Origin: an uncultured Planctomycetaceae bacterium
Lineage (GTDB): Bacteria > Planctomycetota > Planctomycetia > Planctomycetales > Planctomycetaceae
Assembly (NCBI GenBank): GCA_963976765.1
Contig: CAXBME010000001.1
Span: 248,001-312,000 of the forward strand
DNA: 64,000 nt
Direction: 5' to 3'
A program made the translations under genes and the position numbers. The stretch's first letter is position 1, and every line of letters starts with the position of its first letter. The notes below the pieces were generated by a model. That model was given only the letters and a program-made list of their open reading frames with translations, had not been told where the DNA came from and made no database searches. Of this stretch, positions 16,901 through 37,793 are shown in pieces.

Positions 16901-19900
16901 GAAGAAGACCTCAAAGCGCAGATGCAGTTTCTCCTGGCGAAGAACTATTTCGGCAGCAAACGGTACGACGTCGCCCGCAGCGAGTATCAGACGGTCATCA
17001 ATAGGTACTCCAATACTTCGTTCGCCGTCGAGGCAGAGTTCGGCATCGGCGAAACGTTTATGGCGCAGAAAGTTTACGACCAGGCAGAGAAGGTCTTTGA
17101 GAAGCTGGCTGGTAGTCAGGACGCCGAGATTATTGTGCGTGCCGAGTTTCTGCGGGGTATGCTCGCGCACCGCCGTGGCGACAACGACGAAGCTCGCGAC
17201 ATCTTCCGAACAGTGCTCGAACGAGTGCCAAATATCGAACTTGCCAACAAAGCGCTGTTCAATCTGTCGGAAGTCTACGGCGACGAAGAGCGTTACATGG
17301 ATCAGCTTCAGTTGCTGATGACGGTCGGGCGGCTTGGTCGAGTCAGCAAGCGGCTGCATGCTCCCGGTATGCCGTTGTCGATCGTCGTCCAGGACAGCGA
17401 TCTGGGGATCAGTCGTGGGCACAACCGAATTCCAGTGATCGTCAGAACAATTCCCGGTGGCGACGAAGAACTGGTTTATCTGACCAGCGGCGGCGCCGGC
17501 AAAGGATTGTTCCGGGCCGACATCGATACCGAACTTGGTCCTGTCAACAAGGGTGACAAAGTTCTGCAGCTAACGGGTAACGATGTGATTCGGTCGGACT
17601 ATCCGGACGAATTCAAGTCGGAATTCAAAAGCGTTCCGCTGTCGGATGTGGAGATTCAGATTGCCTCGGATGCCCGGTTCGAAGTCGCATCGAGCAAAAT
17701 TATCGACGAAGCCGAGGAGTCGTTCAGCGATCGTCTGGAGCGCGAAGCCCGGGAACGAGAACTCGGCGAAACCCGACAGTCGCAGCAGCGTCCGGCGAAT
17801 CAGATTAAACCTGGAAATCCAATCTATCTTCGAGTCAAAGATGGAGACCGGGATCTTTCGGACGTGCAGGATACTGTCGTCGCCAAACTGGTTGCAGATT
17901 CCGGCGACCAGGTTCAGGTGACGTTGACGGAAACGGAACCGCACTCCGGCATTTTTGAAGGGGCGGCGAAAACGGGCGAACTGCCTGCGGGAGCGCTCGC
18001 TTCGGACACGGCCATCGACCACAGCCCGCTGATGGCCATTGACAAATCGCAGGAAACGTTCTGGCTGAGTGAGCCAGATGGTGCGACTCCGAAGCTGCTG
18101 ACAGTCGACATGAAGAATCTGCAGACTGTGTCCAGGGTCAGAATTCACACTCCAAGTGCCGACGAAAACAAACCGGTGCGAGGGGAACTTCAGGCCAGCT
18201 ACGATGGGGAATTCTGGTACCGAGTGGCGGCTCACCCATCGATTCCCGCAGCTCCGCGAATTGGTGATGCAGAGTATGGGCCGATGCAGTATCGCGTTTA
18301 CCACGAGAACGGCACCAGGTTTACTTCCTGGCAACAGATTTTAAATCTTGCACAGGGCGAGCCACAGTCGCAGGGCGCCGTCACCGATGGGCAATTGATC
18401 TGGCAACGTCCCGATGACGAAGAGGGACGCTCAAAATACTACAGTGTTGTCTGGTTCGGGAAATTCGTGCAGCCGCGCGCGGGGGCCGTTCGATTTGCTG
18501 TTCGAGGTTACCGCACCGCAATTGCTGTCAATGGTCGTCTGGAGATGGAGCCTGGGGAAGGCAACCGAACAGCCGACGTCTGGCTCGACGCAGGGGTGCA
18601 TGATCTGACAATCTTCGCTGCATCGTTCAGTAACACGACTGAAATGTCAGCCGTTCGGGTGCGAGCGGACCTTAACCGACAGCGGGTTGTGCTCAGTCCG
18701 TTCCTGACGGGTGACTTTGATCTTTCCGGGGCGAATGAGTCGCTGACGAATACTGCAGCTGATGCTGCTGGCGAGAAGGAGATAACTTCGAAGGATCAGG
18801 AATCGGAAGTAGTCCTTTCTGACAAGGTCTGGGAGTTTCGTTTCGCTCCGATCAACGTTCGATTCACCCGCTTTGTCATCAACGAATACCTCGGCGAAGC
18901 TGTCGCGGTGAACCATGTCGAAATTTCCGGCAGCGACGATTCGAAACCTTACATTCCGACTGAAACGGACGTGCTTGCTCTTTCCGACAATGACCAACTG
19001 GAAATTGCTGGTGGAGACGTCGTCAAAGCAACATACACCGACGAAGTGACTCAGGCGAATTCTGGCGGCAGTCGGTTAATTGCCGGGCAGCTTCAGGCAA
19101 CTTACTTTAACGGAACCGTTGCTCCGATCGCCTACGACTTTGTCCGAGATCGAAACGGGGCGGTTACAGAAGTCAGTAAGCAACTCAAGCGTGTTGACCC
19201 CGGCGATCGGTTGATTGTGGAAATTACCGACTACGACCGGGACCAGAGCGTGACGCGCGACAAGTTGCAGTTTGAGGTTTCTGTCAATGATGGAGAGCCC
19301 GTCACGTTGACCGCCACGGAAACTGAAGAAAACTCGGGAGTATTTACGAAAGAAGTTGACACCGCCGCGAGAGCAGAGGGGGATCGGTTAGTCGTGGCCA
19401 CTGGTGACCGGATCAACATCCGATACCTCGATGAACAGAATACGTTTCCGGGGCATTCAGTCCCTCGCGAGTCTGTTGTTTATGTCAGCCATCCAACGGA
19501 GTCCCGTGTTCGCATTCTCGAGTCTCGAGTGATTCCCGCTCCACAAGGTTCGGCAAGGCCGCCTCGGTATGTTTATCAGGTGCCAGATGGCGAATCTGAA
19601 GTGACGAATGTGGCATTCGAGGCGCCGCTGACGATCGAAGTCATTGATCCCGATGCCGCACGCGATAGTCGTAGCGAAGTCATTGCCAACGTCACAACAA
19701 GCGATGGGGCAACGGTTGATGTGCGGTGCGTTGTTTCTTCGGCCTTCCTGAATATCCCACGTGAAGAGGCTGAGGAGTACGCCCTGGAGGAAGGTCGATT
19801 TATTGGGCAGATCGCTTTGCAGCTTGGATCGAAGAGCAGTCCCGTGGTCGTTCCCGTAACCGCAGAGATGCCTCGAGGTTTGATCGGCGGAGGCAAAATC

Positions 19901-21289
19901 GAAGGTGATGATGAAGAAAGCGAGTCGTCTGCGTTCGACGATGGACTGGTGGTTGCCGTGCTTAATCTGTCTGGAAAAGACAGGATCACCGCCACGTATC
20001 ACGATGAACGAACGCCGAAGGGAGCCATTGCCAGTCCGTCGGTGTTGGGGCGGCTTATCTCAAACGGCGAGTTGGCGTCGCTCGATCGTGACTATGACGA
20101 ACCGGTCGAACGGCTGCATGTCGGAGAAAAGTTGTTTCTGATGGTGACGGACGCGGATCAGGATTCATCGGATGCACGGGACACTGTCAGGGTTCAGGTG
20201 ACAACTGAATTCGGTGAGAAAGAGGAATTCGAGCTGATTGAAACACTCGCCCACAGTGGCGTTTTCAATGGATCGTTGATGCTTAAGTCGAACGAAGCTC
20301 CGAAGCCCGGCAACATCAATCTGGCGGAGCCAGCGATCGAGTGCTACTTCGGTGACACGATCACGGTGACCTATCTCGATCCAACGGCAAGTACCCCGGA
20401 AGGTCGACTGGAACGGAACACTCAGCTGCCGGTTGTCATTGGTACGGACGGTTTGATCTCAGCTTTCAGCAAGACTTTCAATAACGAAACGCTGGCCGTT
20501 GAAACGAAGTTTCACGTGGCGGAGAGCTACTTTGAGCTTTTCAAAAGTCACAAGAATCTTGGCCGCAAAGAAGAGGAAACGATCGATCTTGACGCTGGCC
20601 GTCGAGTACTTCGCGAAGTCATTGAGGACTTCCCGGATCCGAAGTATCAGCCGAGGATTCTGTACCTGCTTGGTCAGTTCGCGCAGGAACTCGGAGACAC
20701 GGACGAAGCGACATCCGCATACGAGCAGATTGTTTCGCAGTTTCCGGAGCATCCGCTGGCTGCTGATGCTCAGTACAAGCTCGCCCAGACGTATGAAGAG
20801 TCCGGAGATTTTGACGAGGCTTTGGAAGCGTACGTGACTCTCGCCGCGACTTATCCCAGAAGTCCGTTGATCGCCAACGTCATGATTCGAATCAGTGACC
20901 ATTTTTATAAAAACGAGGAATACCCGATCGCTGCTGAGGTGGGGAAGAAGTTTCTTGAGAAGTTCGAAGGTCACCAGTTCGCGTCTCGAATGGCATTTCG
21001 AGTTGGGCAGTGTTTTTACAAGGCGGAGAAATTCGGAACGGCGGGTGAGTCGTTTGACCTGTTCGCCAAAACGTTTCCTGACGACGAACTCGCAGCCGAC
21101 AGCCTGTTCTGGTCGGGGGAGAGTTTCCGCATGGCCAACAACGATCGTGAAGCATTCCGTCGGTACAATCGCTGCCGCTGGGATTTTCCGGCGAGCGACG
21201 CCGCCAAATATGCACGCGGTCGCCTGGCGTTGCCTGAGATGCTGCGGCAGTTTGAAGCAGAAGCCAACTCTGTCGAGAACGACAACTGA
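13949..21289 (+). CDS. Giant (2446 aa) secreted TPR protein with repeated beta-sandwich, discoidin-like and PA14-like modules
   Basis: Signal peptide; ~1130-aa helical/TPR N-terminus; five DxD...(ET..)SGxF...GDxIxxxYxD-type modules; C-terminal TPRs (ADAQYKLAQTYE, FRVGQCFY, SLFWSGESF). Confidence 0.85.
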   Translation: MKLSLFAASLGFFFALSGAAFAQKAEPIDDVSVEASRLEGEVGKYRDISPEAGEALHKLTSLYYQHGRVFGLVRAAHRFVAAHSTDPRHPDVMLKLMDGLEALSRYQEFTVIARQFLTRYPSRPECANVEERLAYSLEKLDEKLPAAQAYRLRWQREMKPTGREFGVKACLLFSQTGTPGITQEAELAEEMFDKLPKDEFARHIGQRSYDQWRRIREWAKANVVGNKLLKSGLLKDDEERREVLRTMAENYRYLGQHSNAIDVLAQARTIRDDQHALYYHIQAMYDSAAPAAQMEPLVKEYLNEYPDREDRYERIALLGLAWNREKNSEKALKLFKGLLAVSPATHSGASHFVQLNGSEPDNLKESEAALRSAIAACEKNSPQQVWRLRYDLGFTLYRDRMKDVPKAKAILREMLAKSPTNDGHTTNVITWLFTTVESEDEFHSDVDLVLKTRRDYPLWSNLRSYPDAWIKSYRKHKMLADRASYLAAKLDQADADPVMQLVSSIRNRASDAREARIREQLAKPEFFNSFNEETKRSVLYDLGYYYQHYAPGTERSTAANYWARLSQMFPDEFDFRFRYLQVATDYGQPEVAKEAAKLMLSFEPDRSYPDVWRRIAIAADKNEDADLARKAVEYAKKTHAKFLPDYQYWTTLGDSLQRRALEDEAVAVWRTVVDAGASHYEARESASRLLQRMETPEEKSVLAKKLFSLDTDYHGRYAGWLADAQLRSGDLAGFAKTLQETHARRLNRPFRNWDMDIYSLHYMLNNFRTHQQDYRLNKDEENPLDAILKVATVIRDVDYDWPSSQGQLVLLEAESPDARAPMDRHLAWQRVTRTVHPDSTRWDHLMPFAQQAVLRNDYAVGATLLTGMLENITRATDSRKEAGRAMVGQCYTRLGTVGLTIDENSPIAPLLQAALYLRLGDERLAMETYLANSALFDKHRDEVPVDLTTFVCDSLMTASGDENHNKVEDIVRSWIIKNSESKTVEEDLKAQMQFLLAKNYFGSKRYDVARSEYQTVINRYSNTSFAVEAEFGIGETFMAQKVYDQAEKVFEKLAGSQDAEIIVRAEFLRGMLAHRRGDNDEARDIFRTVLERVPNIELANKALFNLSEVYGDEERYMDQLQLLMTVGRLGRVSKRLHAPGMPLSIVVQDSDLGISRGHNRIPVIVRTIPGGDEELVYLTSGGAGKGLFRADIDTELGPVNKGDKVLQLTGNDVIRSDYPDEFKSEFKSVPLSDVEIQIASDARFEVASSKIIDEAEESFSDRLEREARERELGETRQSQQRPANQIKPGNPIYLRVKDGDRDLSDVQDTVVAKLVADSGDQVQVTLTETEPHSGIFEGAAKTGELPAGALASDTAIDHSPLMAIDKSQETFWLSEPDGATPKLLTVDMKNLQTVSRVRIHTPSADENKPVRGELQASYDGEFWYRVAAHPSIPAAPRIGDAEYGPMQYRVYHENGTRFTSWQQILNLAQGEPQSQGAVTDGQLIWQRPDDEEGRSKYYSVVWFGKFVQPRAGAVRFAVRGYRTAIAVNGRLEMEPGEGNRTADVWLDAGVHDLTIFAASFSNTTEMSAVRVRADLNRQRVVLSPFLTGDFDLSGANESLTNTAADAAGEKEITSKDQESEVVLSDKVWEFRFAPINVRFTRFVINEYLGEAVAVNHVEISGSDDSKPYIPTETDVLALSDNDQLEIAGGDVVKATYTDEVTQANSGGSRLIAGQLQATYFNGTVAPIAYDFVRDRNGAVTEVSKQLKRVDPGDRLIVEITDYDRDQSVTRDKLQFEVSVNDGEPVTLTATETEENSGVFTKEVDTAARAEGDRLVVATGDRINIRYLDEQNTFPGHSVPRESVVYVSHPTESRVRILESRVIPAPQGSARPPRYVYQVPDGESEVTNVAFEAPLTIEVIDPDAARDSRSEVIANVTTSDGATVDVRCVVSSAFLNIPREEAEEYALEEGRFIGQIALQLGSKSSPVVVPVTAEMPRGLIGGGKIEGDDEESESSAFDDGLVVAVLNLSGKDRITATYHDERTPKGAIASPSVLGRLISNGELASLDRDYDEPVERLHVGEKLFLMVTDADQDSSDARDTVRVQVTTEFGEKEEFELIETLAHSGVFNGSLMLKSNEAPKPGNINLAEPAIECYFGDTITVTYLDPTASTPEGRLERNTQLPVVIGTDGLISAFSKTFNNETLAVETKFHVAESYFELFKSHKNLGRKEEETIDLDAGRRVLREVIEDFPDPKYQPRILYLLGQFAQELGDTDEATSAYEQIVSQFPEHPLAADAQYKLAQTYEESGDFDEALEAYVTLAATYPRSPLIANVMIRISDHFYKNEEYPIAAEVGKKFLEKFEGHQFASRMAFRVGQCFYKAEKFGTAGESFDLFAKTFPDDELAADSLFWSGESFRMANNDREAFRRYNRCRWDFPASDAAKYARGRLALPEMLRQFEAEANSVENDN

Positions 21290-21366
21290 ATTCAGTTTTT
21301 TCGGTTGATTCTGCCTGCTTTAGTTTGCTTTTACACAACCCTGATTCGCCTGTTTTTGAGTTGCTC

Positions 21367-22281
21367 ATGTCTACGATCGTTTATCTTACGCTACTGCTTG
21401 GTCAGGCACCCGATGCTGCTCTTTCGGAACCAGCATCAGAAGTCGTATCCGCAACTGACGAAGCGAGCGATGAATTGCCCGCCGTTAAAGATGCTGAATC
21501 AACGCCCGACAATGACACCATGAATGGTGACAGCGATAGCTCGACAGAGATTGAAGAGGGTTCTGGATTGATCGCCAGGCTTGATGAGATCTCTCAGTCC
21601 GGAGCGATTGGTTTTCTCAGAAAAGGTGGTCTGTTCATGTGGCCGATCCTGTTTCTTGGAATCCTGGCTGCCGGTGTAATGATCGAACGTTACCGCAGCC
21701 TGAAAATGCTGACATCGGATTCCGGTTCGATCCGTGCCGACGTGCAACAGCTTCTTCGTGAAGATCGCATCGAAGAAGCGATGCAACTTTGCGACAGCTC
21801 ACAGGGACCAGTTCCAGCAATCCTGTCTGCTGGACTTCGCAAATTTCTGGTGCTGCGTCGTCTCAATTATGATCCCGCAAAGATCGAGGAGCAGGTCGTC
21901 AAAGCGATGGATGATTACGGAGTCCACGTTGTTGCTGCTCTCGAAAAACACCTTCCAGTTCTCGCAACAGTATCCAGCGTCGCTCCGATGCTGGGGTTCC
22001 TCGGGACGGTCGCCGGAATGGTTACTTCGTTCGAAGAGATCGTGGCGAGGATGGGCGAGACAAATATTGTCGAAGCCGCAGCAGGAGGGATCAGTGTGGC
22101 GTTGCTGACGACCGCTTTCGGATTGATCATCGGCATTCCCGCATTCATGGCCTTCAACTATTTCTCAAGCGTGATCAATCGATTTGTGCTGGAGATTGAA
22201 GAGTCAGCGACAGATTTGATTGAGTCGGTGACTCTGCAACTTGCTTTGCAGAGGAGCACCGAGCAGCCGGCATCGATGTAG
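21367..22281 (+). CDS. MotA/TolQ/ExbB proton channel family protein
   Basis: GGLFMWPI, APMLGFLGTVAGMV and GGISVALLTTAFGLIIGIPA motifs; acidic N-terminal extension. Confidence 0.93.
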   Translation: MSTIVYLTLLLGQAPDAALSEPASEVVSATDEASDELPAVKDAESTPDNDTMNGDSDSSTEIEEGSGLIARLDEISQSGAIGFLRKGGLFMWPILFLGILAAGVMIERYRSLKMLTSDSGSIRADVQQLLREDRIEEAMQLCDSSQGPVPAILSAGLRKFLVLRRLNYDPAKIEEQVVKAMDDYGVHVVAALEKHLPVLATVSSVAPMLGFLGTVAGMVTSFEEIVARMGETNIVEAAAGGISVALLTTAFGLIIGIPAFMAFNYFSSVINRFVLEIEESATDLIESVTLQLALQRSTEQPASM

Positions 22282-26503: not shown

Positions 26504-29020
26504 ATGACAGCAAGCGTCGATACACAGTCATCACCTGGTCAGGATGCCGTACCTGCAACCGAGGGCATCTCCCCGGAGGCTGCTCAGGCAGTTCTCGGAA
26601 GCCTGGATCGTGAAGTCGCGAGACATCTCGCGTTGACTCTTGGGCACGACGATTCGAAATTCGCCCCGGAATACCTGTATCGCGCACTGGCGACGGCGGT
26701 GCGAGATCGTCTGATTCGAGACTGGCGCGTAACGCACACACGCTTCGCAGCGAGTGATCAGAAAAAAGTTTACTACCTGTCGCTCGAATTTCTGATCGGT
26801 CGATCGTTGACGAACGCCGTCGCCAACCTTGACCTCGATCAGGATACTCAAGCCGCGTTGCATGATTACGGCGTTACACTCGAAGAACTCGCCGAACAGG
26901 AACACGACGCCGGCCTGGGCAACGGCGGGCTGGGACGGCTGGCCGCTTGCTTTCTGGATAGCTGCGCGAATCTGCAACTGCCTGTGGTTGGCTACGGCTT
27001 GCGGTATGAATACGGAATGTTTCACCAGCAGATCGAAAACGGCCAGCAGGTTGAAAATCCCGATCATTGGTTGAGAAACGGAAATCCGTGGGAGCTGGAA
27101 CGCTCAGAAGACGCTCGGCGAGTCCACTTTTACGGACACACGGAACACTATCGTGATCAGGATGGCTTGCCGCGAGTGCGATGGGCGAATGGCAATGACG
27201 TCCTGGCAATTCCGTTTGACATGCCGGTTCCTGGTTACAGAAACGGTACGGTTAACTCACTGCGTCTGTGGAAAGCCTGCGCGACGGACGAGTTCGATCT
27301 GGAAGAGTTTAACGCAGGAAGTTATCCGGAAGCGGTGGCGGCCAAGAATCAGGCCGAACAGATCACGATGGTTCTCTACCCGAACGATGCCAGTGAAAAT
27401 GGAAAAGAGCTTCGGTTGAAGCAGCAGTATTTTCTCGTCTCGGCGAGTTTGCAGGATGTCATCGCTCAATGGGTCGCAAAGCACGGCGAGGACTTTACCG
27501 GTTTCGGTAAAAGCAACTGCTTTCAGCTGAACGACACGCATCCTGCATGTGCCGTCCCGGAACTGATGCGTCTGCTGATGGATGAGCACGGATTGTCCTG
27601 GGGTGACAGCTGGAGCATTACAACTCAGTGCATGGCCTACACGAATCACACACTGTTGCCTGAAGCGCTGGAACGCTGGTCGGTTGGACTGTTCAGTCGC
27701 CTGTTGCCGCGATTGCTGGAGATCATTTATGAGATCAACTCGCGGTTCCTGGCTCATATTGCCGAACACTTTCCAAATGATCCAGGGATTCTTTCACGCA
27801 TGTCGCTGATTGAAGACGGCGAGCACCCTCACATCCGCATGGCTTACCTGGCAATCGTTGGCAGTTTCTCGGTAAACGGAGTGGCGGGCCTGCACACCGA
27901 ACTGCTCAAGCAGGGACTGTTCGGTGATTTCAACTCGCTGTGGCCAGAGAAGTTCAACAATAAAACAAACGGCGTCACGCAGCGGCGCTGGCTGGCTCAC
28001 TGCAATCCGGGATTGCGGAATCTGCTCAATGAAACGATTGGCGATGGCTGGCAGAAAGACCTCAGTCGGATTTCTGAACTTGCTCCGTACGCCGAACAAA
28101 GTGCGTTCCGGGATAAGTGGCGAGAGGTAAAACAGTCTAACAAACGCCGATTGATTCAACTGGTTGACCGGGAAACCGGAGTGCAGTTCAGCGAGTCGGC
28201 AATGTTTGACGTTCAGGTAAAGCGAATTCACGAGTACAAGCGACAGCTCCTTAACGTGTTGCACGCGATTCATCTCTACGATCGCATTCTGGAAGGGAAG
28301 ACCGAAGGCATGGTGCCTCGGTGTATCCTGATTGGTGGAAAAGCCGCACCAGGTTATCACGTCGCGAAGTTGATCGTTCATTTGATCAACAACGTATCGC
28401 AGGTCATCAACAAGGATGCGCGAGCAGACGAACTTCTCAAAGTCGTGTTCATCCCGAACTACCGGGTCTCGGCGATGGAAGTTATCTGTCCTGCCGCTGA
28501 GTTGTCCGAGCAGATTTCCACAGCCGGAAAAGAAGCGTCCGGCACGGGCAATATGAAATTCATGATGAACGGCGCTTTGACGATTGGGACACTCGACGGC
28601 GCCAATATCGAAATTCGCGAGCAGGCCGGTGATGAGAATTTCTTCCTGTTTGGATTAGATGCGGCCGAAGTCGCGGAGACTCGCAAGACCTATCAGCCGA
28701 ACGAGATCATCGCGAACGATCCTGAGATCACACGAGTTATGCAGTTGCTGGAAGGTGGGATGTTTAACGAATCGCAGCCTGGCGTTTTCAGTATGCTGAC
28801 TGCTGGACTGCGCAATCCGCATGATCCCTGGCTGACGATCGCTGATTTCCGCAGCTTCATCGACGCTCAGAAACAAGTGAACGACGTTTACCAGGATCAG
28901 GATCGCTGGAACACGATGAGCATCCTGAATACCGCAGCCAGCGGCTGGTTCTCCAGTGACCGTACGATTAGCCAGTACGCAGATGAGATCTGGAATGTGA
29001 AACCGCTCGGGCAGGCATGA
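26504..29020 (+). CDS. glgP: Glycogen/starch phosphorylase
   Basis: YLSLEFLIGR, LGNGGLGRLAACF, QLNDTHP, VKRIHEYKRQ and EASGTGNMKF (PLP lysine) motifs. Confidence 0.98.
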   Translation: MTASVDTQSSPGQDAVPATEGISPEAAQAVLGSLDREVARHLALTLGHDDSKFAPEYLYRALATAVRDRLIRDWRVTHTRFAASDQKKVYYLSLEFLIGRSLTNAVANLDLDQDTQAALHDYGVTLEELAEQEHDAGLGNGGLGRLAACFLDSCANLQLPVVGYGLRYEYGMFHQQIENGQQVENPDHWLRNGNPWELERSEDARRVHFYGHTEHYRDQDGLPRVRWANGNDVLAIPFDMPVPGYRNGTVNSLRLWKACATDEFDLEEFNAGSYPEAVAAKNQAEQITMVLYPNDASENGKELRLKQQYFLVSASLQDVIAQWVAKHGEDFTGFGKSNCFQLNDTHPACAVPELMRLLMDEHGLSWGDSWSITTQCMAYTNHTLLPEALERWSVGLFSRLLPRLLEIIYEINSRFLAHIAEHFPNDPGILSRMSLIEDGEHPHIRMAYLAIVGSFSVNGVAGLHTELLKQGLFGDFNSLWPEKFNNKTNGVTQRRWLAHCNPGLRNLLNETIGDGWQKDLSRISELAPYAEQSAFRDKWREVKQSNKRRLIQLVDRETGVQFSESAMFDVQVKRIHEYKRQLLNVLHAIHLYDRILEGKTEGMVPRCILIGGKAAPGYHVAKLIVHLINNVSQVINKDARADELLKVVFIPNYRVSAMEVICPAAELSEQISTAGKEASGTGNMKFMMNGALTIGTLDGANIEIREQAGDENFFLFGLDAAEVAETRKTYQPNEIIANDPEITRVMQLLEGGMFNESQPGVFSMLTAGLRNPHDPWLTIADFRSFIDAQKQVNDVYQDQDRWNTMSILNTAASGWFSSDRTISQYADEIWNVKPLGQA

Positions 29021-29132: not shown

Positions 29133-32100
29133 TTAGTTTGCCAATGGGTGCAGCGTCAGCAGGTTGTGGCCTTCGCCGTATTGCCCGAGCTTGAAGATGT
29201 GTTCTCGATAGTGGAGCACGTCGAGTACGGTCAGCGTTTCGATCATTCGCAGCGTCAGCAACTGTTCGGTGATCCGGCCCGGATGTTGCAGGAGTTCGCC
29301 AAGTCTTCGTTCGCCTTCCTCTTCGACATTATCGCCGAACCTGTCCCATGCCATCAGTGCCGCTGCCGCGCCGGATTCGTTGTTAAGTATGGCTTTCCAT
29401 GCGCTGCGTTTTGCGGCAGAGTCGGTTCCGTTCGTCGTCTGCCAGTAGCGGCGAAACGCTGCTCGCAGTGCAAACCGAGGGCTGAGCCGATCTCGCATTG
29501 ACGGTCTGGCAGGTGTCGTGTGGAGGATTTCGGCCAGCATCGGCCTGGCAAACAAGTGCGTGCGGACTCCGTTCAGGTCGGCGTGAACAGCAATTGAGGC
29601 TGCTCGTAAGTGTTGTCGGGTGTTGAGTGCGTCTTTCGCAAGCCCGCGCTGCTCAGCGATGCGTTCCAGCAGGCCGTCTTCGAGAGCATGCTCAAGCCAT
29701 CGCATCCCTGACAGGCATCGCCGCTTTTCAAACTCAATCTTTCGTTGAGTTGCCGGACCAAGTCGCAGAAAAGCGATGTCCGTGTCGGCGTCTGCTGTTC
29801 CGAGGAGCGATGAATCTTCACCGGGTAGTGCGATGCCCAACCATGCCGGGTCGAAAATCGCACGCAGCCGCACGCAACGCTCGGCAACCGGGCCACGTAC
29901 GCGATTCACTTTTCGGACCGCGACGCGGAAGTCGGCCTGAGCAGCGTCGATGGGAGTCTTGCGCCGTTCCGGGTGCCGAATTTCCTGCACGGACAGGTAG
30001 ATCCAGCCGATCAATTTTGTCAGCCAGCGGCCAAGGGCAATGAACAGAAACCACGGTGTAAGAAACATTCGCCCGCCAGCAATCCACGCTTCGTAGGCGG
30101 CGTAAAGATTGACAACCCGTTCACTGCGAGGTCTCAAATGCAGAGGCAGTGTCCCGAAAGTTCGTCGGATCAGCAGGCTGCGGTCACCGCGGATTCGGGC
30201 GACGACTTCTGGTCCGAAGTGCTCTTCAACCGTCTGGTCACGTTGTGGGTCGGGGTCGAGAAAATGCAGTGCGGTAAATGACGTCGTCACATAACCCGTA
30301 TTCGCAATGGTTGGTTCGGCAATCGTACTGGCGTCAACCTGAAAATCAGGATCTGTGTTCAACCATTGTGTGAACAGGTTCTTCTGGGCATCGGAGCAGT
30401 ATGGCAGTTCGTGGCTCGGAATCGCGCGACGGTTATAGTCAACCAGAAGTCGAGCAACGGAGTGGCTGACTGACTGAGCGATAAAATGGAACCAGAGGTA
30501 AGGACCGTTCAGCAGCGACTTCTGATTTTCGAGGTCGACCTGGGAGAGCTGCCGCGCGTCTTTTCTCGAAATGCGATCGGATGTCAGTATCAACTGGCTG
30601 AGCGCCGTGTTGCCGAGCAGCTGGTTGGTCGCGCGAGTGTCACTTTGAGTAAACATCGCGCCGTCGAGCCAGTCGTGGTAAAGCAGTTCCAGTCGGTTGA
30701 TGAATGGCATTTGTGCGATGAACCGGTCGTCGTTGTCGACATCTTTCTGTGTGCGAAACATGGCATGACGAAGCCGGTCGCACAGAACTTCGATACGTTC
30801 AGCGTCGGTGCGATGGTCTTCCGTTGGCCAGTCCGCAGCCAGAACTCGTTCGTACAAAGCTGCGGCGTCGCGCTTGAGATACTTCGGACGGACCGAATCC
30901 ATCAGGTGCAGAAACTGAGCCTGTACCGACTTGTCGTAAAACTCCGTGGCTTCCCTGGCAACTCGCTGCAGCCACCAGCCCAACCCAAGTACGAACAGAC
31001 ACACGCCTCCGAGAACCAGCACGGTGGTTCCCAGGAAGCGTTTCAGAAAAGCTCGAAGTGGCTCCAGTGCATCGATATCAACGATCGACAGCGTCGCTTC
31101 CGTCAGGATCAGAAACCCGCCGAACAGGAGCAGTCGGTAGGCTGGACGCGATGAGCTCTTAACGAGGATACCACCGACTCGATCAATGAATTGTGATGGG
31201 GTCACAGTGCCGTAGAGGTCAGCCAGCCAGAACCAGCCATCGTGAAATCTACGCAAGAATCGAGCGACATGACGCGACGTCGTTGAAACGACGTCGGCTT
31301 CGCTCATCTGACTCGCCTGAGCCGGGACGCATTGACTGATGATCGGAAGCCAGCGGAGCGGCGCGACTGAGAGGATGCGGATGATCCGAGCGAGCTGCAT
31401 CATCATGGGCTCGCCGAGTGCCGGTTCGACCAGAGACGGTTCGAGCGATTCCATGCGGTCGAGTAGAGCTTCTGCCGGAATGTCCCTCGTACCTGATGTC
31501 GCGCGGCTGCTTTCTTCGAACTGGATTGAGCGGCGATTCAGAGTCTCCTGAAGTCCTGCGATGCGCGTACTGGCGACTGCGAGGCGGTCTTCAGCACTGG
31601 CTTCAGCAAACATTCTCGACCAGGCATCGCGCAGCATTTGTCGAAGTTCCTGGATATTACGAGCCGCTTCCCGTCGTTCCTGCTCGAAGATTTCCTGTTC
31701 ACGCTGTGTCGGATGCAGAATGACATTGCAGTTCAAAACGTGACCATAACGACGAACAAGTCGATCGATGCCCCGCGCGATTAGCCCGAGTGCTCGAACA
31801 ACTCGGACGACCGGTCGCAGAATTCGGACGTAACGAACGAACCTCGGCAGACGAGCGAATCGCACGACACGACCGGCGCGAACGACGTCTCCGGGATTTC
31901 CCAGGCCAGCGGTCAACAGACCGAATGGAATCGACGGAACAAAATCAACGAAGAAGTGCCGCATGAACCAGCGGCTGCGGCCTTTGACCAGTGACAGCTT
32001 CAGGCCAAACTCCAGTAGAAACACGACACACGCTGTGGCATCAACAATGGTGAACCAGAAGAGTGTTTCTGCAGACAGCGGGACCGTGAATTCGACCGCC

Positions 32101-33026
32101 ATCAGGCCCAGGACCAGGCAGATGAGTACCAGCACCAGTCGTTCGAGCCGCCCCGTCCACAGACGCCCGAACTTTGTTTCCATCGCCCCCTGGAGCTGGC
32201 GTTCCTGTTCTTCCGCACGAAGTCGGCGGTGTCTCCATTTCAGGTGGCGTGTGGCGTCGTTGCGTCGCCGATCGACTTTTCTGAGATACCAGCCAGACAG
32301 CATGAGCATTGATCGAATCTGCTCAGCCGCAACGGCAGGAGCGAGGTCGTCGACCGTTGTGAGGATGTGATCGCACTGGTCGGCGATCAGTCGGGTCCAG
32401 CGGTCGAGCGTGCGGCTGTCTGGCTTTTCAGTTTCAAGGTGGGAAGCCAGTTCATCCCGCAGGTTGTCGCGAAGCTCTCTCAAAGGAGTCAGCGATGCGG
32501 GCTCCAGCAGTCCTCGGTTACGAATGTCGGCTTCAAGCTGTGCGGTACCCAGCAGGTCGTCGAACAGCGCATTCGGGTCTGCATTGCTTTTCCGCCGTTC
32601 GACGGTCGCTTTCCAGTCGGCAGCTGCTTCGGTAAATGCAGAACGCGCGAGTTCGCGACACTGCTCGACCTGTTCATCAAGGCCGTGCCGTTCACAGAGT
32701 CGTTGCCATTGAGAAACCGAAGCGAGGTAGCCGCCCAGGCTGAGCGTCTCGATATTGCCGTCTTCGGATTTCGCCGCGATGTCGATCGCTTCATTTTTCA
32801 GCCGATTGAGTTCTTCGCAGCGGGTGACCAGGTCTTCATCACCGAACCGATCAGCTTCAATCAGACGACGTTTCAGGTCAGCAATCGCGACTCGATCCTG
32901 CATCGACTGATGGGTATCAGCCTTCTCACGGTTCGGGGGTGATGGTGATCCTGATTCGTCGCCTTGAGCCATCTCAATGTCTGTCCCATCCTGCGGTTCG
33001 CGATCCGTGCGGCCTGTCGGAGTCAA
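29133..33026 (-). CDS. Large membrane protein with a voltage-sensor-like (S1-S4) domain
   Basis: S1 LERLVLVLICLVLGLMAVE, S2 VDATACVVFLLEFGLK, S3 VDFVPSIPF and S4 RAGRVVRFARLPRFVRYVRILR; the remainder is unrecognised. Confidence 0.8.
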   Translation of the reverse strand: MTPTGRTDREPQDGTDIEMAQGDESGSPSPPNREKADTHQSMQDRVAIADLKRRLIEADRFGDEDLVTRCEELNRLKNEAIDIAAKSEDGNIETLSLGGYLASVSQWQRLCERHGLDEQVEQCRELARSAFTEAAADWKATVERRKSNADPNALFDDLLGTAQLEADIRNRGLLEPASLTPLRELRDNLRDELASHLETEKPDSRTLDRWTRLIADQCDHILTTVDDLAPAVAAEQIRSMLMLSGWYLRKVDRRRNDATRHLKWRHRRLRAEEQERQLQGAMETKFGRLWTGRLERLVLVLICLVLGLMAVEFTVPLSAETLFWFTIVDATACVVFLLEFGLKLSLVKGRSRWFMRHFFVDFVPSIPFGLLTAGLGNPGDVVRAGRVVRFARLPRFVRYVRILRPVVRVVRALGLIARGIDRLVRRYGHVLNCNVILHPTQREQEIFEQERREAARNIQELRQMLRDAWSRMFAEASAEDRLAVASTRIAGLQETLNRRSIQFEESSRATSGTRDIPAEALLDRMESLEPSLVEPALGEPMMMQLARIIRILSVAPLRWLPIISQCVPAQASQMSEADVVSTTSRHVARFLRRFHDGWFWLADLYGTVTPSQFIDRVGGILVKSSSRPAYRLLLFGGFLILTEATLSIVDIDALEPLRAFLKRFLGTTVLVLGGVCLFVLGLGWWLQRVAREATEFYDKSVQAQFLHLMDSVRPKYLKRDAAALYERVLAADWPTEDHRTDAERIEVLCDRLRHAMFRTQKDVDNDDRFIAQMPFINRLELLYHDWLDGAMFTQSDTRATNQLLGNTALSQLILTSDRISRKDARQLSQVDLENQKSLLNGPYLWFHFIAQSVSHSVARLLVDYNRRAIPSHELPYCSDAQKNLFTQWLNTDPDFQVDASTIAEPTIANTGYVTTSFTALHFLDPDPQRDQTVEEHFGPEVVARIRGDRSLLIRRTFGTLPLHLRPRSERVVNLYAAYEAWIAGGRMFLTPWFLFIALGRWLTKLIGWIYLSVQEIRHPERRKTPIDAAQADFRVAVRKVNRVRGPVAERCVRLRAIFDPAWLGIALPGEDSSLLGTADADTDIAFLRLGPATQRKIEFEKRRCLSGMRWLEHALEDGLLERIAEQRGLAKDALNTRQHLRAASIAVHADLNGVRTHLFARPMLAEILHTTPARPSMRDRLSPRFALRAAFRRYWQTTNGTDSAAKRSAWKAILNNESGAAAALMAWDRFGDNVEEEGERRLGELLQHPGRITEQLLTLRMIETLTVLDVLHYREHIFKLGQYGEGHNLLTLHPLAN

Positions 33027-33161: not shown

Positions 33162-34331
33162 TCAGAAGAGTGTCGGTTGGTTGCGCTGCACAAGGACGGC
33201 GAGTTTTCGGCCCGTCGTTGATAGCGGATAGTCGTCCAGCTGCGCTGCGGGCACCCACTGAAGGTTCTCATTCGGGATTGGAAAAGCACGTTCGGTTGAG
33301 GCGAGGAAGCACAGCAGACTGATCCGATAACGCGTGACGCTGTGCCGTAATTCCTTGAGGAATCGGTCAAGCTGGATGCTGGCTCCGGTTGTTTCGCTGA
33401 CGGATGATTCAACTTGCGAAATCAGCCGCCGCGGAACGGTGCTGGTTGTTTTCAGGCCGGATGCTGGCACCAGTGATTCGGCATCACCGAGCGGGAATCG
33501 AACAAAATCCCAAAGTCCGGCCCAGCGTTGGCCTTCCGGGTAACGTCTCAAGAGGAATCGGTCTTCGTGCTGAATCGCGACGGAGACTTCAATGACCGGC
33601 GTGATTTCTGGTTTTTGTGCCGCCATCGGGATCGCGTGCTGGCGACCGGCGTTGGCCGCTCGGCAGTGCGGCAGCAAAGGGCACTCGGGGCAGTCCGGTT
33701 CGCTCGGTGTGCAGACTGTGGCTCCGAGATCCATTAACGACTGGTTGAACGGGCCGATGTTTTTTCGAGGAAGAAGGTGTTCAGCAAATGCCCATAGAAC
33801 TTTCTGACCGTGAGTCGCTCGTGGGTTTTCTTCGAAACTCAACAGGCGGCTGTAAAGACGCAGGGTATTGGCCTCAACGATCGCGCCGGGGAGATCAAAC
33901 GCGAACGACATGATCGCGCCGGCGGTGTAACGACCGATGCCGGGCAGAGCTGTCAGCTCGTCGGTTGTCTGAGGAAACACGCCGTCGCGCTGTTCGACCA
34001 GCAGCTTTGACGTTTTGTGAATATTGCGGGCGCGGCTGTAATAACCGAGCCCTTCCCAGTGCCGCAGCACCTCATCCTGTTCAGCCGCCGCGAGATCGTG
34101 AATTGTGGGAAAGCGGTTGATGAATCTTTCAAAGTAGGGGACGACGGTTGCGACCGTCGTCTGCTGGAGCATGATTTCGCTGATCCAGACTTTGTAAGGT
34201 TCACCAATATTCCGCCACGGAAGATCGCGAGCACGTTTTGCGTACCACGACTTCAGGCTGCGGCGAAACTGCGTAAGTTCCGCCGAGTCGTAAGGTTCGA
34301 ATAGAGGCCTGCTGCTGTCTCGACGGTTCAT
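33162..34331 (-). CDS. mutY: A/G-specific adenine DNA glycosylase
   Basis: RDLPWR, WISEIMLQQT, WEGLGYYSRARN, LPGIGRYTAGAI, Fe-S motif CTPSEPDCPECPLLPHC and NUDIX-like C-terminus; ATG 34331. Confidence 0.95.
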   Translation of the reverse strand: MNRRDSSRPLFEPYDSAELTQFRRSLKSWYAKRARDLPWRNIGEPYKVWISEIMLQQTTVATVVPYFERFINRFPTIHDLAAAEQDEVLRHWEGLGYYSRARNIHKTSKLLVEQRDGVFPQTTDELTALPGIGRYTAGAIMSFAFDLPGAIVEANTLRLYSRLLSFEENPRATHGQKVLWAFAEHLLPRKNIGPFNQSLMDLGATVCTPSEPDCPECPLLPHCRAANAGRQHAIPMAAQKPEITPVIEVSVAIQHEDRFLLRRYPEGQRWAGLWDFVRFPLGDAESLVPASGLKTTSTVPRRLISQVESSVSETTGASIQLDRFLKELRHSVTRYRISLLCFLASTERAFPIPNENLQWVPAAQLDDYPLSTTGRKLAVLVQRNQPTLF

Positions 34332-34399
34332 CGTCGCCTTTGTCTCTTCGTGCAAGTTATGAAATTTATATGAGGGGGAGTCATGCTGATCTTGTGACG

Positions 34400-35614
34400 T
34401 CAACCGGCCTGTTCGATGTCTGCAAAAGCGACGCCAGCCAGACATTGTTGAATGGCCTTTATGGCCTGAGTGACCTTGCCGTCCGTCGCTGCCTGAAGCG
34501 CCTTGTCGAGCCAGCTGACCTGTCGCTGTGATATCGGAATAGCTGTTTGTGATTCTGGAACTTCCGGGATCAATGTCCTGACGATCTGAGCGATCAATTC
34601 CTCGACCCCGATTCGGGTTGTCGATGAAACCGGCAATGCGTCGTCCGGCAGCGACGTCGACCATTGCCCAGGTAGATCAGCTTTATGCGCGACGATAATC
34701 GTTGGCGGTTTGTTTTGCGGGTCGGGTGGCGACGTGAATTCAGTCAGCAGTTCGTGATCTTCGAAGGTCGGCGGTCGAGACATGTCGAGGAGCAGGCACA
34801 CCAGGCTTGCCGACTCGACGGTCCGGCGGGCGCGTTGAATTCCGGCGTGTTCGAGTTCATCGTCCGTGGTGCGGATACCTGCCGTGTCAGCGAGTTGAAA
34901 CGGCCAGCCCTCGAACGCCGTTCCGCCTGTAACGACGTCGCGAGTGGTGCCTGGTTGATCGAAAACGATTGACCGAGTGTAACCGAGCAGTTCGTTGATG
35001 AGCGTGCTTTTGCCAACGTTGGGACGACCGGCCAGAACGACTCGCCACGGCTGAGTCAGGTGGATCCCAAAGCTGGACCAGCTCAGCAGTTCGGTCAGTT
35101 GCCTGATCAGGGCCGTCTGATCGAGCGTAAGCAACTGCTCGAGCGTGGTACGTAACGTGCCTGACGACTGCTCGAGAAGAATCGCGGCTGTGCGAGCGGT
35201 GGTTGCCTTCGCCACTGCGTCAGCGAGTTCGCGGTCGAACGGCGATGTCAGCGCAGCCTGCTGAGTCTGCCAGTCAACAGTCGATGCTCCGGCGGAAGCC
35301 AACGATTCAAGAATTCGATTGACTGCGGCGCGACCTCCGTGGCACGACACTTCCACCGTTGACTCGTCGACTCGACAGACGACAACGTCTTCACTCGACT
35401 GGTCAGTGACCCAGTGCCCGTAGCAAAGTCGTCCGATCGGTTGTTGCGAAAGAAGTTTTCCGCTGACCGCAACGAAGCCGGCTTCAACGACCGATGCTGC
35501 TCGGCTCGACTCTGCTGGTGGGGAACTGTGAACGCGGACAACGGCAACGGCACCTCGCCCGTGCGGCGTCAGCAACGATGCTGTCAGTGGGGAGGCAATT
35601 GAGGAGCGGTGCAT
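34400..35614 (-). CDS. mnmE: MnmE/TrmE-like GTPase (shortened, no C-terminal FCIGK)
   Basis: TPHGRGAVAVVRV, EVSCHGG, G1 GRPNVGKST, G2 PGTTRD, G3 DTAG and G4 HKAD. Confidence 0.8.
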   Translation of the reverse strand: MHRSSIASPLTASLLTPHGRGAVAVVRVHSSPPAESSRAASVVEAGFVAVSGKLLSQQPIGRLCYGHWVTDQSSEDVVVCRVDESTVEVSCHGGRAAVNRILESLASAGASTVDWQTQQAALTSPFDRELADAVAKATTARTAAILLEQSSGTLRTTLEQLLTLDQTALIRQLTELLSWSSFGIHLTQPWRVVLAGRPNVGKSTLINELLGYTRSIVFDQPGTTRDVVTGGTAFEGWPFQLADTAGIRTTDDELEHAGIQRARRTVESASLVCLLLDMSRPPTFEDHELLTEFTSPPDPQNKPPTIIVAHKADLPGQWSTSLPDDALPVSSTTRIGVEELIAQIVRTLIPEVPESQTAIPISQRQVSWLDKALQAATDGKVTQAIKAIQQCLAGVAFADIEQAG

Positions 35615-35699
35615 GTTATGGTTGAGTCGTAAGTGGCGATTGCCGAGACTGGAATTGGAGAATCGGAAGCTGCCGACAATGGCAGCGGCCAGGATTCTT

Positions 35700-36530
35700 T
35701 CAGGAACTCAGTTCGCTGGCCAGTACGGACGTCACAACGCGACCGATCGCTGGCGCCACACCGGCCACGGTTGCGAGTACATCGTCGCTGGACACGCTCT
35801 CCAAATCGCCGTCCGTCGCCACGTTGGAAACGACGGAAAATCCCAGCACTCGAATGCCGGCGTGCCGAGCGGCGATAACTTCCGGAACGGTCGACATCCC
35901 TACGACGTCGGCTCCGAGTGTCCGGACCATGCGGTACTCAGCTGGCGTTTCGTAAGTTGGACCGGACAGTGCCAGGTAGATTCCGCGGTGTGTCCGTAGA
36001 CCTTCTCGATCTGCTGCTGTTTTCGCTTGGTGAGCAAGCTGTGGATCATAAGGGCAGCTCATGTCTGGAAAACGAGTCCCCAGACGTTCGTCGTTAGGGC
36101 CTCGTAGCGGGTTGCCCCACATCATGTTGATATGGTCGTCCAGGATCACGATGTCGCCGCAACTGAATTGCTGGTTTACCGCGCCGGCAGCGTTCGAGAC
36201 AACCAGTGTCTGAATACCCAGTGCGATCATCAGTCGAACAGGATAAACAATCGTGTCAAAGTCGTGGCCCTCGTACCGGTGAAACCGGCCATCGACCAGA
36301 CAAACCGGCAGGCCCGCCAGTTTTCCGAAGAGTAGGCGGCCTCGGTGTCCGGGGGCGGTCGTCCGAGGGTAATGGGGGATCACGTCTCCATCGAAAGCGA
36401 CAACTTCATCCAGCGAATTACTCAGCGATGAGAGTCCTGACCCCAGAACGATGCCGGCGATCGGCGTGCCTGAGTAGAAATCGCGAATGTAGTCAACACT
36501 TTCGTCAAGGCTGGCGTGGATGTTGGTCAT
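35700..36530 (-). CDS. punA: Purine nucleoside phosphorylase (trimeric type)
   Basis: VLGSGL, GHRGRL, GRFHRYEG, SNAAG, GPTYETPAE and VGMSTVPEV motifs; ATG 36530. Confidence 0.95.
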   Translation of the reverse strand: MTNIHASLDESVDYIRDFYSGTPIAGIVLGSGLSSLSNSLDEVVAFDGDVIPHYPRTTAPGHRGRLLFGKLAGLPVCLVDGRFHRYEGHDFDTIVYPVRLMIALGIQTLVVSNAAGAVNQQFSCGDIVILDDHINMMWGNPLRGPNDERLGTRFPDMSCPYDPQLAHQAKTAADREGLRTHRGIYLALSGPTYETPAEYRMVRTLGADVVGMSTVPEVIAARHAGIRVLGFSVVSNVATDGDLESVSSDDVLATVAGVAPAIGRVVTSVLASELSS

Positions 36531-36911
36531 GCGTTGTCCGGACAGGGAAAGCTGGGGCACCACCACGAGCAGTCACTTTTTTACGGAATCAAACCGCGAC
36601 GTAACTGTGGGCAGCCACTTCCATCAATTCGCGAATGGCGATGATTTGCAGTCACGTCCAATACCAGAAGAATCACTGATCGACAACCAGTCCCGCATGT
36701 GGAAAGTCACAGGCTCTGCTGGAGCGTTTTTTGAAGTGTTCGTTTTCGGCAGCTTCTGGTTTGATTGATTGACGGTAACTGATGATCGAAATCAGCAATG
36801 TGCGAAGAACATCGAGCCGCTGCGGAAGGGAATCGATTCGCCAACTGTTCTGACGTCCGTTCTTGATGCCGCGAGTGCTGAGTGTCGGGATGCTGGCCGA
36901 CGGCTGCTCAG

Positions 36912-37793
36912 CTAGCTGGAAGGCCGTTGTCGCAGTTCCGAAAACTTCAGTTGCGATCGCTTTGCTGGCTGGTCGCCTGTCTTCTGCGTTCGTAACAGAG
37001 CGTCGGAAACTTTGTCGGAGTCGTTCTGAGGTCTTTCAATTCGCACTCGTCGAACTGACTTGAATGTGCCGGTGCCGTCAAAGCTGTCAGCCGGAAAACT
37101 TCCGAGGACCGACCGAACAACGCCTCGATTCCACACATCGGAAGGGGCCACCACCGTATCGACCGATGAAAATGCCAGTCGTACGCCAGCAAGAACGAAT
37201 TCCCAGACGGGTTCGTCGGTCGCCGCGATGATCTCTCGCATCTGCGACTGCCCGAATTCGACCGATCGGTCGCTTTCAAAGGCGAACTCGTCGAGTTGAT
37301 AGTTCAGGACGAGATGACCGATGAGCAGGTCGGACCATCGCTCGGATTTGCGCCGCAACCGGTCAACCTGCGACATCTTTGCAACGGGTACCTGCAGGGT
37401 GTTAGCCAGCAACGTGAGCGATCGGTTGCGAGCTTCGGTGTGACCCTTCAGCGTGTGTAGCGCGATTGGGCCTCCGATGGCCTCCTTTCGATGGAAATCA
37501 GCGGCCGTTAGAATTGCCGCCCAGACTCGTGTCAGGATTTCCGTAACGAAGACTTCCGTAATGATCGGTTCAGCAGATGCCCAGAGCTGAATATGTGCCT
37601 CTGGATGAGTCACGCTGGCTTCGCTGATGACTCGATCCAGACTTCTCAGCCAGTCCATCGTGCGACCACGGCAACATTTCCAGTAGTCATGCAGATGCTG
37701 GTCAGGGATCGCCGCCGTGCTTTCGATCAGGAACGCTGATCTTGCTGAAGCAAAGGCTGCGGTTTCGGCGATCTGTCGAAGGGTCAGTGACAT
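36912..37793 (-). CDS. Hypothetical protein (helical)
   Basis: 293-aa ORF with protein-like composition, a GGAG upstream and the same strand as its neighbours. Confidence 0.7.
   Translation of the reverse strand: MSLTLRQIAETAAFASARSAFLIESTAAIPDQHLHDYWKCCRGRTMDWLRSLDRVISEASVTHPEAHIQLWASAEPIITEVFVTEILTRVWAAILTAADFHRKEAIGGPIALHTLKGHTEARNRSLTLLANTLQVPVAKMSQVDRLRRKSERWSDLLIGHLVLNYQLDEFAFESDRSVEFGQSQMREIIAATDEPVWEFVLAGVRLAFSSVDTVVAPSDVWNRGVVRSVLGSFPADSFDGTGTFKSVRRVRIERPQNDSDKVSDALLRTQKTGDQPAKRSQLKFSELRQRPSS

Follow-up and report, generated by a model that had tools for sequence, protein, structure and literature searches.

A Kv-type voltage sensor joined to a two-helix membrane-anchored module in a family of planctomycetal proteins

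The window analysed here is a stretch of 64,000 nucleotides from an uncultured Planctomycetaceae bacterium (assembly GCA_963976765.1, contig CAXBME010000001.1, positions 248,001 to 312,000). On its reverse strand it carries an open reading frame (ORF) of 1297 uninterrupted codons beginning with TTG. Translation more likely begins with the ATG of residue 19 (nt 32972), which gives a protein of 1279 residues; most of the 20 closest homologues begin at this ATG, as does the ESM Atlas record. An earlier note, made from the DNA alone, had described the product as a canonical voltage sensor without an adjacent pore. The ORF has 118 homologues (28-93% identity, most spanning nearly the whole query region). 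'Ion transporter' is a database label of homologues, and those that are named belong to the Planctomycetota. Pfam Ion_trans (PF00520) matches residues 295-415 with model positions 5-128 of 241, which is the sensor half only; this is the sole PF00520 match in the source genome. The NCBIfam scan of the protein gave no match. In all 119 long representatives of the family, the sensor is followed by a linker, a two-helix membrane hairpin and a helical cytoplasmic body, and it is to this module, instead of a pore, that the sensor is joined.

The family was delimited with a profile of the C-terminal 857 residues, which recovered 590 cluster representatives at E 0.001, the best 150 of the 590 being listed. 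Among the 143 proteins examined, all 119 that are long enough retain sensor, hairpin and body, 7 shorter ones have a partial sensor and 17 short ones are without the N-terminal half; most of these 17 look like contig fragments. Conservation counts refer throughout to the 119 diverse members, which are 24-65% identical to the query. In six loci from metagenome-assembled genomes (L017, L018, L023, L042, L046 and L068) the fused gene is broken over several frames, probably by assembly indels.

By its sequence and its predicted structure, the segment from residue 288 to residue 404 is a genuine S1-S4 sensor of the Kv type. The hallmarks of such sensors given in the available part of PMC13661669 are a Phe in S2, a Glu one turn below it and an Asp in S3, which together form the charge-transfer centre. 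The query has F336 and E339 in the S2 sequence VVFLLEF (residues 334-340) and D361 in the S3 sequence VDFVPSIP (residues 360-367), as the earlier note had picked out. F336 occupies the charge-transfer position, with D329 as the outer countercharge and E339 as the inner one. Positions 329 and 339 are Asp or Glu in 119/119 members and position 361 in 110/119, while residue 336 is Phe in 85, Leu in 33 and Ile in 1; P367 is invariant. The acidic residue at the outer end of S1, position 312, is Glu or Asp in 102/119.

S4 has Arg at every third position (383, 386, 389, 392, 395, 398, 401 and 404), with further Arg at 408 and 411. A run longer than six occurred in 0/5000 shuffles of the protein, and the run of eight is unique among the 4430 six-frame ORFs of at least 300 residues in the genome, the next best being six. 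The S4 had been called unusually long; it is not unique in this, as domain IV of NaV1.4 likewise has eight S4 charges (available part of PMC13661669). Eight charges are at the top of the range, not outside it. Uninterrupted runs in the family range from 1 to 8, with at least four in 80/119 members and at least seven in 49/119. The helix that continues S4 is well conserved at R411 (116 of 119), R418 (110), D421 (118) and R422 (102), and it may serve as a coupling rod.

An AlphaFold2 model of residues 100-1297, built from a 111-sequence alignment (mean predicted local distance difference test, pLDDT, 84.5; predicted template modelling score, pTM, 0.79), forms a four-helix S1-S4 bundle. Residues 272-399 align with Kv4.2 (7e7z) at Z 11.9 (root mean square deviation, rmsd, 4.5; 127 residues), and the sensor aligns with the isolated KvAP sensor (1ors) at Z 10.7 (rmsd 4.0; 123 residues) and with the Ci-VSP sensor (4g7v) at Z 10.0 (rmsd 5.5; 124 residues). 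These Z values are moderate by the standards of helical bundles, but the sensor is accepted because the sequence profiles agree: S2-S4 of Kv4 is matched in the PDB by the family profile at E 9e-6, and against bacterial Kv channels (hhalign) the profile gives 98.8% probability over 117 columns, ending at residue 410. The closest relatives of the sensor are ordinary bacterial Kv channels of 250-300 residues. The helical bundle in front of S1, which standard sensor topology would place on the cytoplasmic side, is the least conserved part of the protein and enters S1 through a conserved ExQERxLxxRLExxFG helix. Its structural matches to other helical bundles (rmsd 13-14) were rejected as reflecting a common arrangement.

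The S5, pore helix, filter and S6 that follow S4 in channels are missing, by both the sequences and the model. A profile of six ordinary bacterial Kv channels (251 positions, filter at 178) matched 118/119 members, none of the 118 past position 130, while three control channels were matched through positions 221-244. By strict match, four of six control channels have their filter 54-59 residues past the sensor, and the other two have variants; in the family, the next membrane helix begins 216-236 residues beyond R411 (93 sequences). No GYG occurs in the query and no TxExW after S4; the sole T-x-[ED]-x-W match, at residue 206, is in a soluble helix before S1. The region 540-720 scored 0.7% against Kv pores and 3.5% against the genome's own pore domains (hhalign). 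A by-eye likeness of DLYGTVTP (603-610) to the end of a K+ filter was discarded on the same scores; the PDB profile search gave no K+ channel to E 10, and Y605 is kept in 36% of the family. The earlier note's statements that the sensor is pore-less, that no GYG or TxExW filter follows it and that about 200 residues of soluble helix come after S4 therefore all hold, the last of these being the helical linker of the model. Of the two outcomes that would have overturned that note's reading, an S1-S4 bundle lacking the sensor fold and later helices arranged as an ordinary pore, neither was found.

Although the later hydrophobic segments had been described as isolated, they are a conserved transmembrane hairpin and an amphipathic helix (hydrophobic moment 1.28 for residues 995-1012). 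In the model, a three-residue turn joins the two long helices of the hairpin, with no re-entrant pore loop. The span from G636 to G673 is 31-43 residues in 112/119 members, too short in these for a pore helix and a filter. The outer loop is variable, and the inner flank is basic (+3.3). With the two of this hairpin added to S1-S4, family hydropathy gives six membrane helices in all. Matches of the hairpin to SMC, prefoldin and moesin (Z 8.7-9.6) were set aside as a generic coiled-coil arrangement.

The body modelled alone (residues 700-1290) is all helical, with pLDDT 89.6 and pTM 0.90. Within it, the acidic motif D785-x-x-D788-G789-...-D796...Q802, whose five named residues are at least 70% conserved in the alignments of both this family and the sensor-less one described below, is a candidate ligand, metal or substrate site. 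The amphipathic helix lies in an insert (residues ~960-1035) that is a gap against the sensor-less profile and has R970, N973, Y978, G985, P991 and P1019 in at least 90% of members. Because it is confined to the fused form and has near-invariant residues, the insert would fit a coupling element. Pfam recognised no family in the query's part, and nothing recurrent over the C-terminal halves of 50 members (E 0.1). In Foldseek searches of the PDB, the full and the C-terminal model both lacked matches at E 0.001. VIA-align of the C-terminal model, which exceeds the tool's advised size of 400 residues, found none of 48,161 chains at Z of at least 5, the best being 4.9. Neither residues 700-1290 nor a sensor-less homologue had a usable match in ESM Atlas. 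A blank structure search of this kind is no proof of a new fold.

The same hairpin and body also occur as a protein of their own. Three weak matches in a survey of Planctomycetota genomes proved to be complete proteins of ~565 residues without a sensor, and they belong to a family of 32 relatives of 366-629 residues, typically ~540 (proteins P0269-P0300). The sensor-less profile is collinear with the query from residue ~595 to the end (501 columns, 99.4%, E 2.3e-21, hhalign). A sensor was found in 0/32 of these proteins (best E 0.55) and in no frame of 18 sensor-less loci, while two fused controls were positive. In ten genomes with the sensor-less form, no separate gene for the N-terminal half, linker included, was found; the three matches to the sensor in those genomes are ordinary K+ channels with filters. 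At least 70% conserved in both families are, besides the acidic motif, G606, T609, G618, R627, A703, K713, W845, F846, F917, F922, R949, R1055, D1059, Y1062, R1141, R1260 and Y1273; the residues common to both are, for the most part, polar ones in the cytoplasmic body. In a FastTree tree of 40 fused and 11 sensor-less rows, the two forms separate with support 100.

Because the hairpin and body (~595-1285) occur without the sensor, they are, as far as sequence comparison goes, an autonomous membrane-anchored module. The sensor, linker and N-terminal bundle would be a regulatory add-on or else were lost from the short form, the tree being unrooted. The claim that the sensor is coupled to large uncharacterised cytoplasmic domains is therefore right about the cytoplasmic body but not in making it cytoplasmic only. 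The sensor-less family has nothing recurrent in Pfam (29 proteins), nothing significant against the PDB by profile, one weak MFS match far under the cut-off in NCBIfam (one protein), and 0/8 proteins matched by PADLOC.

Table 1. Features of the sensor gene, its neighbours and its sensor-less homologues. Positions are those of the window unless a locus (L) is named.
Feature	Residues	Position	Strand	Remarks
Whole ORF, 1297 residues from TTG		29133..33026	-	uninterrupted over 1297 codons
N-terminal helical bundle, probably cytoplasmic	19-286	32169..32972	-	AlphaFold2 secondary structure, conservation
S1	288-314	32085..32165	-	ends in outer acidic residue E312
S2	319-346	31989..32072	-	D329, C333, F336, E339
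S3	350-372	31911..31979	-	D361, PSIP kink
S4 arginine ladder	383-404	31815..31880	-	eight Arg, i+3
S4 extension helix	404-426	31749..31817	-	helix in model; R411, R418, D421, R422
Helical cytoplasmic linker	432-602	31221..31733	-	sensor-fused form only
Long helical hairpin	610-703	30918..31199	-	membrane helices 632-650, 664-682
All-helical C-terminal cytoplasmic body	704-1285	29172..30917	-	invariant F917, R1038, R1042, R1055, D1059, R1260
Acidic motif	785-802	30609..30680	-	common to fused and sensor-less families
Amphipathic helix	983-1017	29976..30080	-	within fused-only insert ~960-1035
MutY-like glycosylase, MnmE/TrmE-like GTPase		within 33162-36566	-	upstream, same strand
Glycogen phosphorylase		26504-29020	+	downstream, convergent with sensor gene
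Sensor-less genes		L097:1139-2836, L098:605-2305, L099:1672-3390, L195:4427-6130, L196:4609-6249		homologous to query 595-1285

The survey covered 401 Planctomycetota genomes at least 90% complete, of which 55 matched: 52 strongly, with the fused gene usually in one copy, and the 3 weakly. The sensor-less form is present in 9/401, and in 0/9 together with the fused form. The spread is patchy; 0/40 other genomes of the query's taxonomic family have the fused gene. In a second phylum (one member genome is labelled Verrucomicrobia), the fused gene is found in 2/251 genomes, and there are two more sensor-less copies, one of them alongside a fused copy in a single genome (G413; L188, L195). Literature searches, outside which lay most subscription journals and all supplements, found no paper on the fused family.

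A second membrane protein recurs beside both forms. It has 240-290 residues, about four hydrophobic segments and a soluble C-terminal part, and it has nothing in Pfam (five proteins) or NCBIfam and nothing significant in a PDB profile search. It occurs in 148/401 genomes: 51/52 with the fused form, 7/9 with the sensor-less form and 90/340 others, that is, in 58/61 genomes with either form against 90/340 without, although these counts include related, non-independent genomes. Its gene adjoins the module gene in 7/58 shared genomes, divergently in G262 and G359, in tandem in G097, G126, G166 and G341 and convergently in G234, and also in four loci of the homologue locus set; stop and start of the two genes overlap in L141 and L142. 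In one taxonomic family (f13), the same 4/7 genomes carry both. The copy in the source genome is a membrane protein of 286 residues (L156:6195-7055; G000:C1 about 446194-447054). This four-helix protein is a lead, the best candidate partner of the module. In two genomes of one genus (L141:2638-6543 and L142:605-4513), the sensor-less gene, the partner gene and a gene for an AMP-binding enzyme (PF00501) stand together, apparently as one unit.

The closest known voltage-sensor systems share part of this architecture. With the Kv channels (KvAP 1ors/2kyh, Kv4.2 7e7z) the query shares the S1-S4 fold, the charge-transfer centre and the S4 ladder; instead of the S4-S5 linker, S5, pore helix, filter and S6, it has ~220 residues of helix, a loop-less hairpin and a body of 580 residues. 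Neither S5-P-S6 nor TVGYG/TxExW, the marks of the six-transmembrane (6TM) channels (Kv, BacNav, CNG/HCN), is present. In P-loop-free two-helix channels (CorA, MscL, MCU), the hairpins of an oligomer line a pore; the family hairpin bears no conserved loop motif. In the voltage-sensing phosphatases (VSPs) Ci-VSP and TPTE, a pore-less sensor precedes a cytoplasmic effector, as in the query. The PTEN and C2 folds of these enzymes contain sheets. The query, in contrast, has no beta-sheet in either model and no phosphatase family in the Pfam matches of 50 members (E 0.1); its effector is all-helical and without phosphatase or C2, it has two extra membrane helices and sensor-less kin, and it is bacterial.

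In Hv1, the selectivity residue is an acidic one (Asp) in the middle of S1. The query resembles Hv1 and TMEM266 in having S1-S4 without a pore domain and a helix that continues S4, but it has neither the acidic S1 residue nor the S4 Trp, and it has ~900 further conserved residues. The helical extension after the pore-less S1-S4 of Hv1 is described in PMC13095418 and its S4 Trp, with the RxWRxxR signature, in PMC10377628, and in the parts of these two papers available Hv1 and TMEM266 are described from eukaryotes only. In SLC9C1, the sensor controls a membrane module that is not a channel, and it does so by a long S4 embedded in intracellular helices (available part of PMC13095418). The sensor of the query is likewise joined to what is probably a non-channel membrane module, but there are no 13-helix exchanger and no cyclic-nucleotide-binding domains, of which Pfam gave no match either; with six membrane helices by hydropathy, it adds only two to its sensor. 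By the features that define them, the protein is outside the Kv/Nav, Hv1, VSP and SLC9C1 families. By analogy, it most likely works in the manner of Ci-VSP or SLC9C1, with VSP the closest.

With a probability of roughly one half, the protein is a voltage-controlled, non-channel membrane effector in which movement of S4 switches the membrane-anchored module. Membrane potential would be what it senses in vivo: a negative resting potential would pull S4 inward, and depolarisation, as on loss of the proton-motive force, would let it move outward. The motion could be relayed through the S4 extension (404-426), the linker and the fused-only amphipathic helix (983-1017) to the body, where a site of acidic and basic residues (D785/D788/G789/D796 with R949, R1055, D1059 and R1260) would be switched between states. 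Its most likely output would be to bind or turn over, at the membrane surface, a molecule that is phosphorylated or anionic, or else to control a partner, for which the co-occurring four-helix protein is the best candidate. In the sensor-less form, the module would perform this task either constitutively or in response to a different input. More tentatively, the family would be the first in prokaryotes to place a non-channel output under the control of a voltage sensor, with an autonomous two-helix-anchored effector and a dedicated four-helix partner turning membrane potential into an enzymatic or binding output.

Several points weigh against this voltage-controlled effector. The model has its lowest confidence at S4, with pLDDT 55-64 at residues 370-409, and the S4 run is three or fewer in 39/119 members, so that strong voltage sensing may not be family-wide. 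In the source genome, the candidate partner lies 165 kb from the sensor gene, and it is far commoner than the module: within the query's family, each of the 40 other genomes has the partner and none has the module. It was not matched in 3/5 further fused-gene genomes, one of them complete, and the relatedness of the genomes bears on its co-occurrence. No operon is common to the fused-gene neighbourhoods, and the neighbours, the candidate partner aside, give no function. Finally, K+ channels are split into two-transmembrane (2TM) and 6TM types, and the six helices of the fused form and two of the sensor-less form parallel that split, which favours a channel-like alternative.

That alternative, unlikely though it is the strongest competitor, is a non-canonical voltage-gated channel or transporter in which copies of the hairpin, with or without the four-helix partner, line a pathway free of a P-loop, the cytoplasmic body serves for gating or ligand binding and the sensor-less form corresponds to a 2TM channel. 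Besides the helix numbers, it draws on the small hairpin residues G673, C676, G683 and A690, present in at least 90% of members and suited to close helix packing, on the existence of 2TM channels, such as CorA, MscL and MCU, that lack a P-loop and carry a large cytoplasmic body, and on the ORF being the only PF00520 match in a genome that is 100% complete. The hairpin itself speaks against it: the outer loop is unconserved, filter-like strings occur in the hairpin of 2/119 members, the membrane helices average fewer than one charged residue per 19, and between the two families its conservation is weak while that of the cytoplasmic motif is strong.

A lower probability is given to a sensor-like domain that no longer reads voltage and acts as a structural anchor, a lipid or ligand sensor or an assembly module, for which TRP channels are a precedent. 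The ladder of 1-8 charges, with the short ladders of 39/119 members scattered over the tree, the Leu in place of F336 in 33/119 and the fact that the module does without a sensor in other genomes would all suit such a domain, but the countercharges are all kept across members only 24-65% identical to the query, at least four charges at i+3 spacing remain in 80/119 and at least seven in 49, and in the query the set is complete. It is improbable that the protein serves as an accessory subunit, its sensor being used in trans by a pore-only K+ channel that another gene encodes. Four genes with a PF07885 pore in the genome have no PF00520 match of their own, and a sensor engineered to co-assemble with Kir2.1 has been reported (available part of PMC13755035), but no pore gene is found among the recurrent neighbour clusters or the scanned neighbours, and the 900 conserved residues and the sensor-less family would be left unexplained. 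In the source genome, a PF07885 channel gene of 237 residues (L073:985-1698) encodes several hydrophobic helices before its pore, with no PF00520 match.

Very improbable is an Hv1-like proton channel with conduction through the sensor itself. Hv1 likewise has S1-S4 without a pore and a helix that extends S4, but an acidic residue in mid-S1 occurs in 1/119 members and RxWRxx[RK] in 2/119, neither in the query, and with the Arg ladder unbroken the gating pore should be sealed. Even with a sensor nearest to Kv channels of 250-300 residues and homologues labelled 'ion transporter', the sequences refute a Kv/Nav channel, ordinary or broken, and likewise an assembly chimera: the ORF is uninterrupted, the architecture is the same in 119/119 long representatives and none of them reaches the pore half of Kv.

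To our knowledge, the few non-channel users of voltage sensors, namely VSP, Hv1, TMEM266 and SLC9C1, are all eukaryotic. In the available part of a 2023 review, all known prokaryotic sensors are accompanied by a pore (PMC10377628), and the pore-less exceptions given in that of PMC13095418 are eukaryotic only; this family would be a large natural counter-example to the rule in prokaryotes. The sensor half is textbook, and the novelty is what the sensor is joined to. The fusion may let a bacterium switch a non-channel protein by membrane voltage. If so, it would bring the kinds of electromechanical coupling to four and might supply a part for voltage-controlled tools, and membrane potential in Planctomycetota would act directly on an enzymatic or binding output. 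The sensor-less homologues, small and soluble-rich, are proteins in which the activity could be sought, after which the fused form would show its control by S4. The sensor-less two-helix family is worth study on its own.

Around the sensor gene, the upstream set also includes, within 33162-36566 on the same strand, a gene that we take to encode a purine nucleoside phosphorylase. This gene order, with the mutY set upstream and glycogen phosphorylase downstream, is kept in the closest relatives only, and the neighbourhoods of the fused gene track lineage, with mutY/glycogen phosphorylase in one and other housekeeping sets in others. A promoter scan gave 0 sites, and the look-up of sequencing runs listed none for RNA. 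Elsewhere in the window, an ORF of 293 residues (36912-37793, reverse strand) has no match in Pfam or NCBIfam. On the forward strand, 13949-21289 encodes a secreted-looking protein of 2446 residues with TPR stretches and YbgF/CpoB-like matches near its C-terminus; it is followed, at 21325-22281 on the same strand, by what is presumably a MotA/TolQ/ExbB proton channel subunit.

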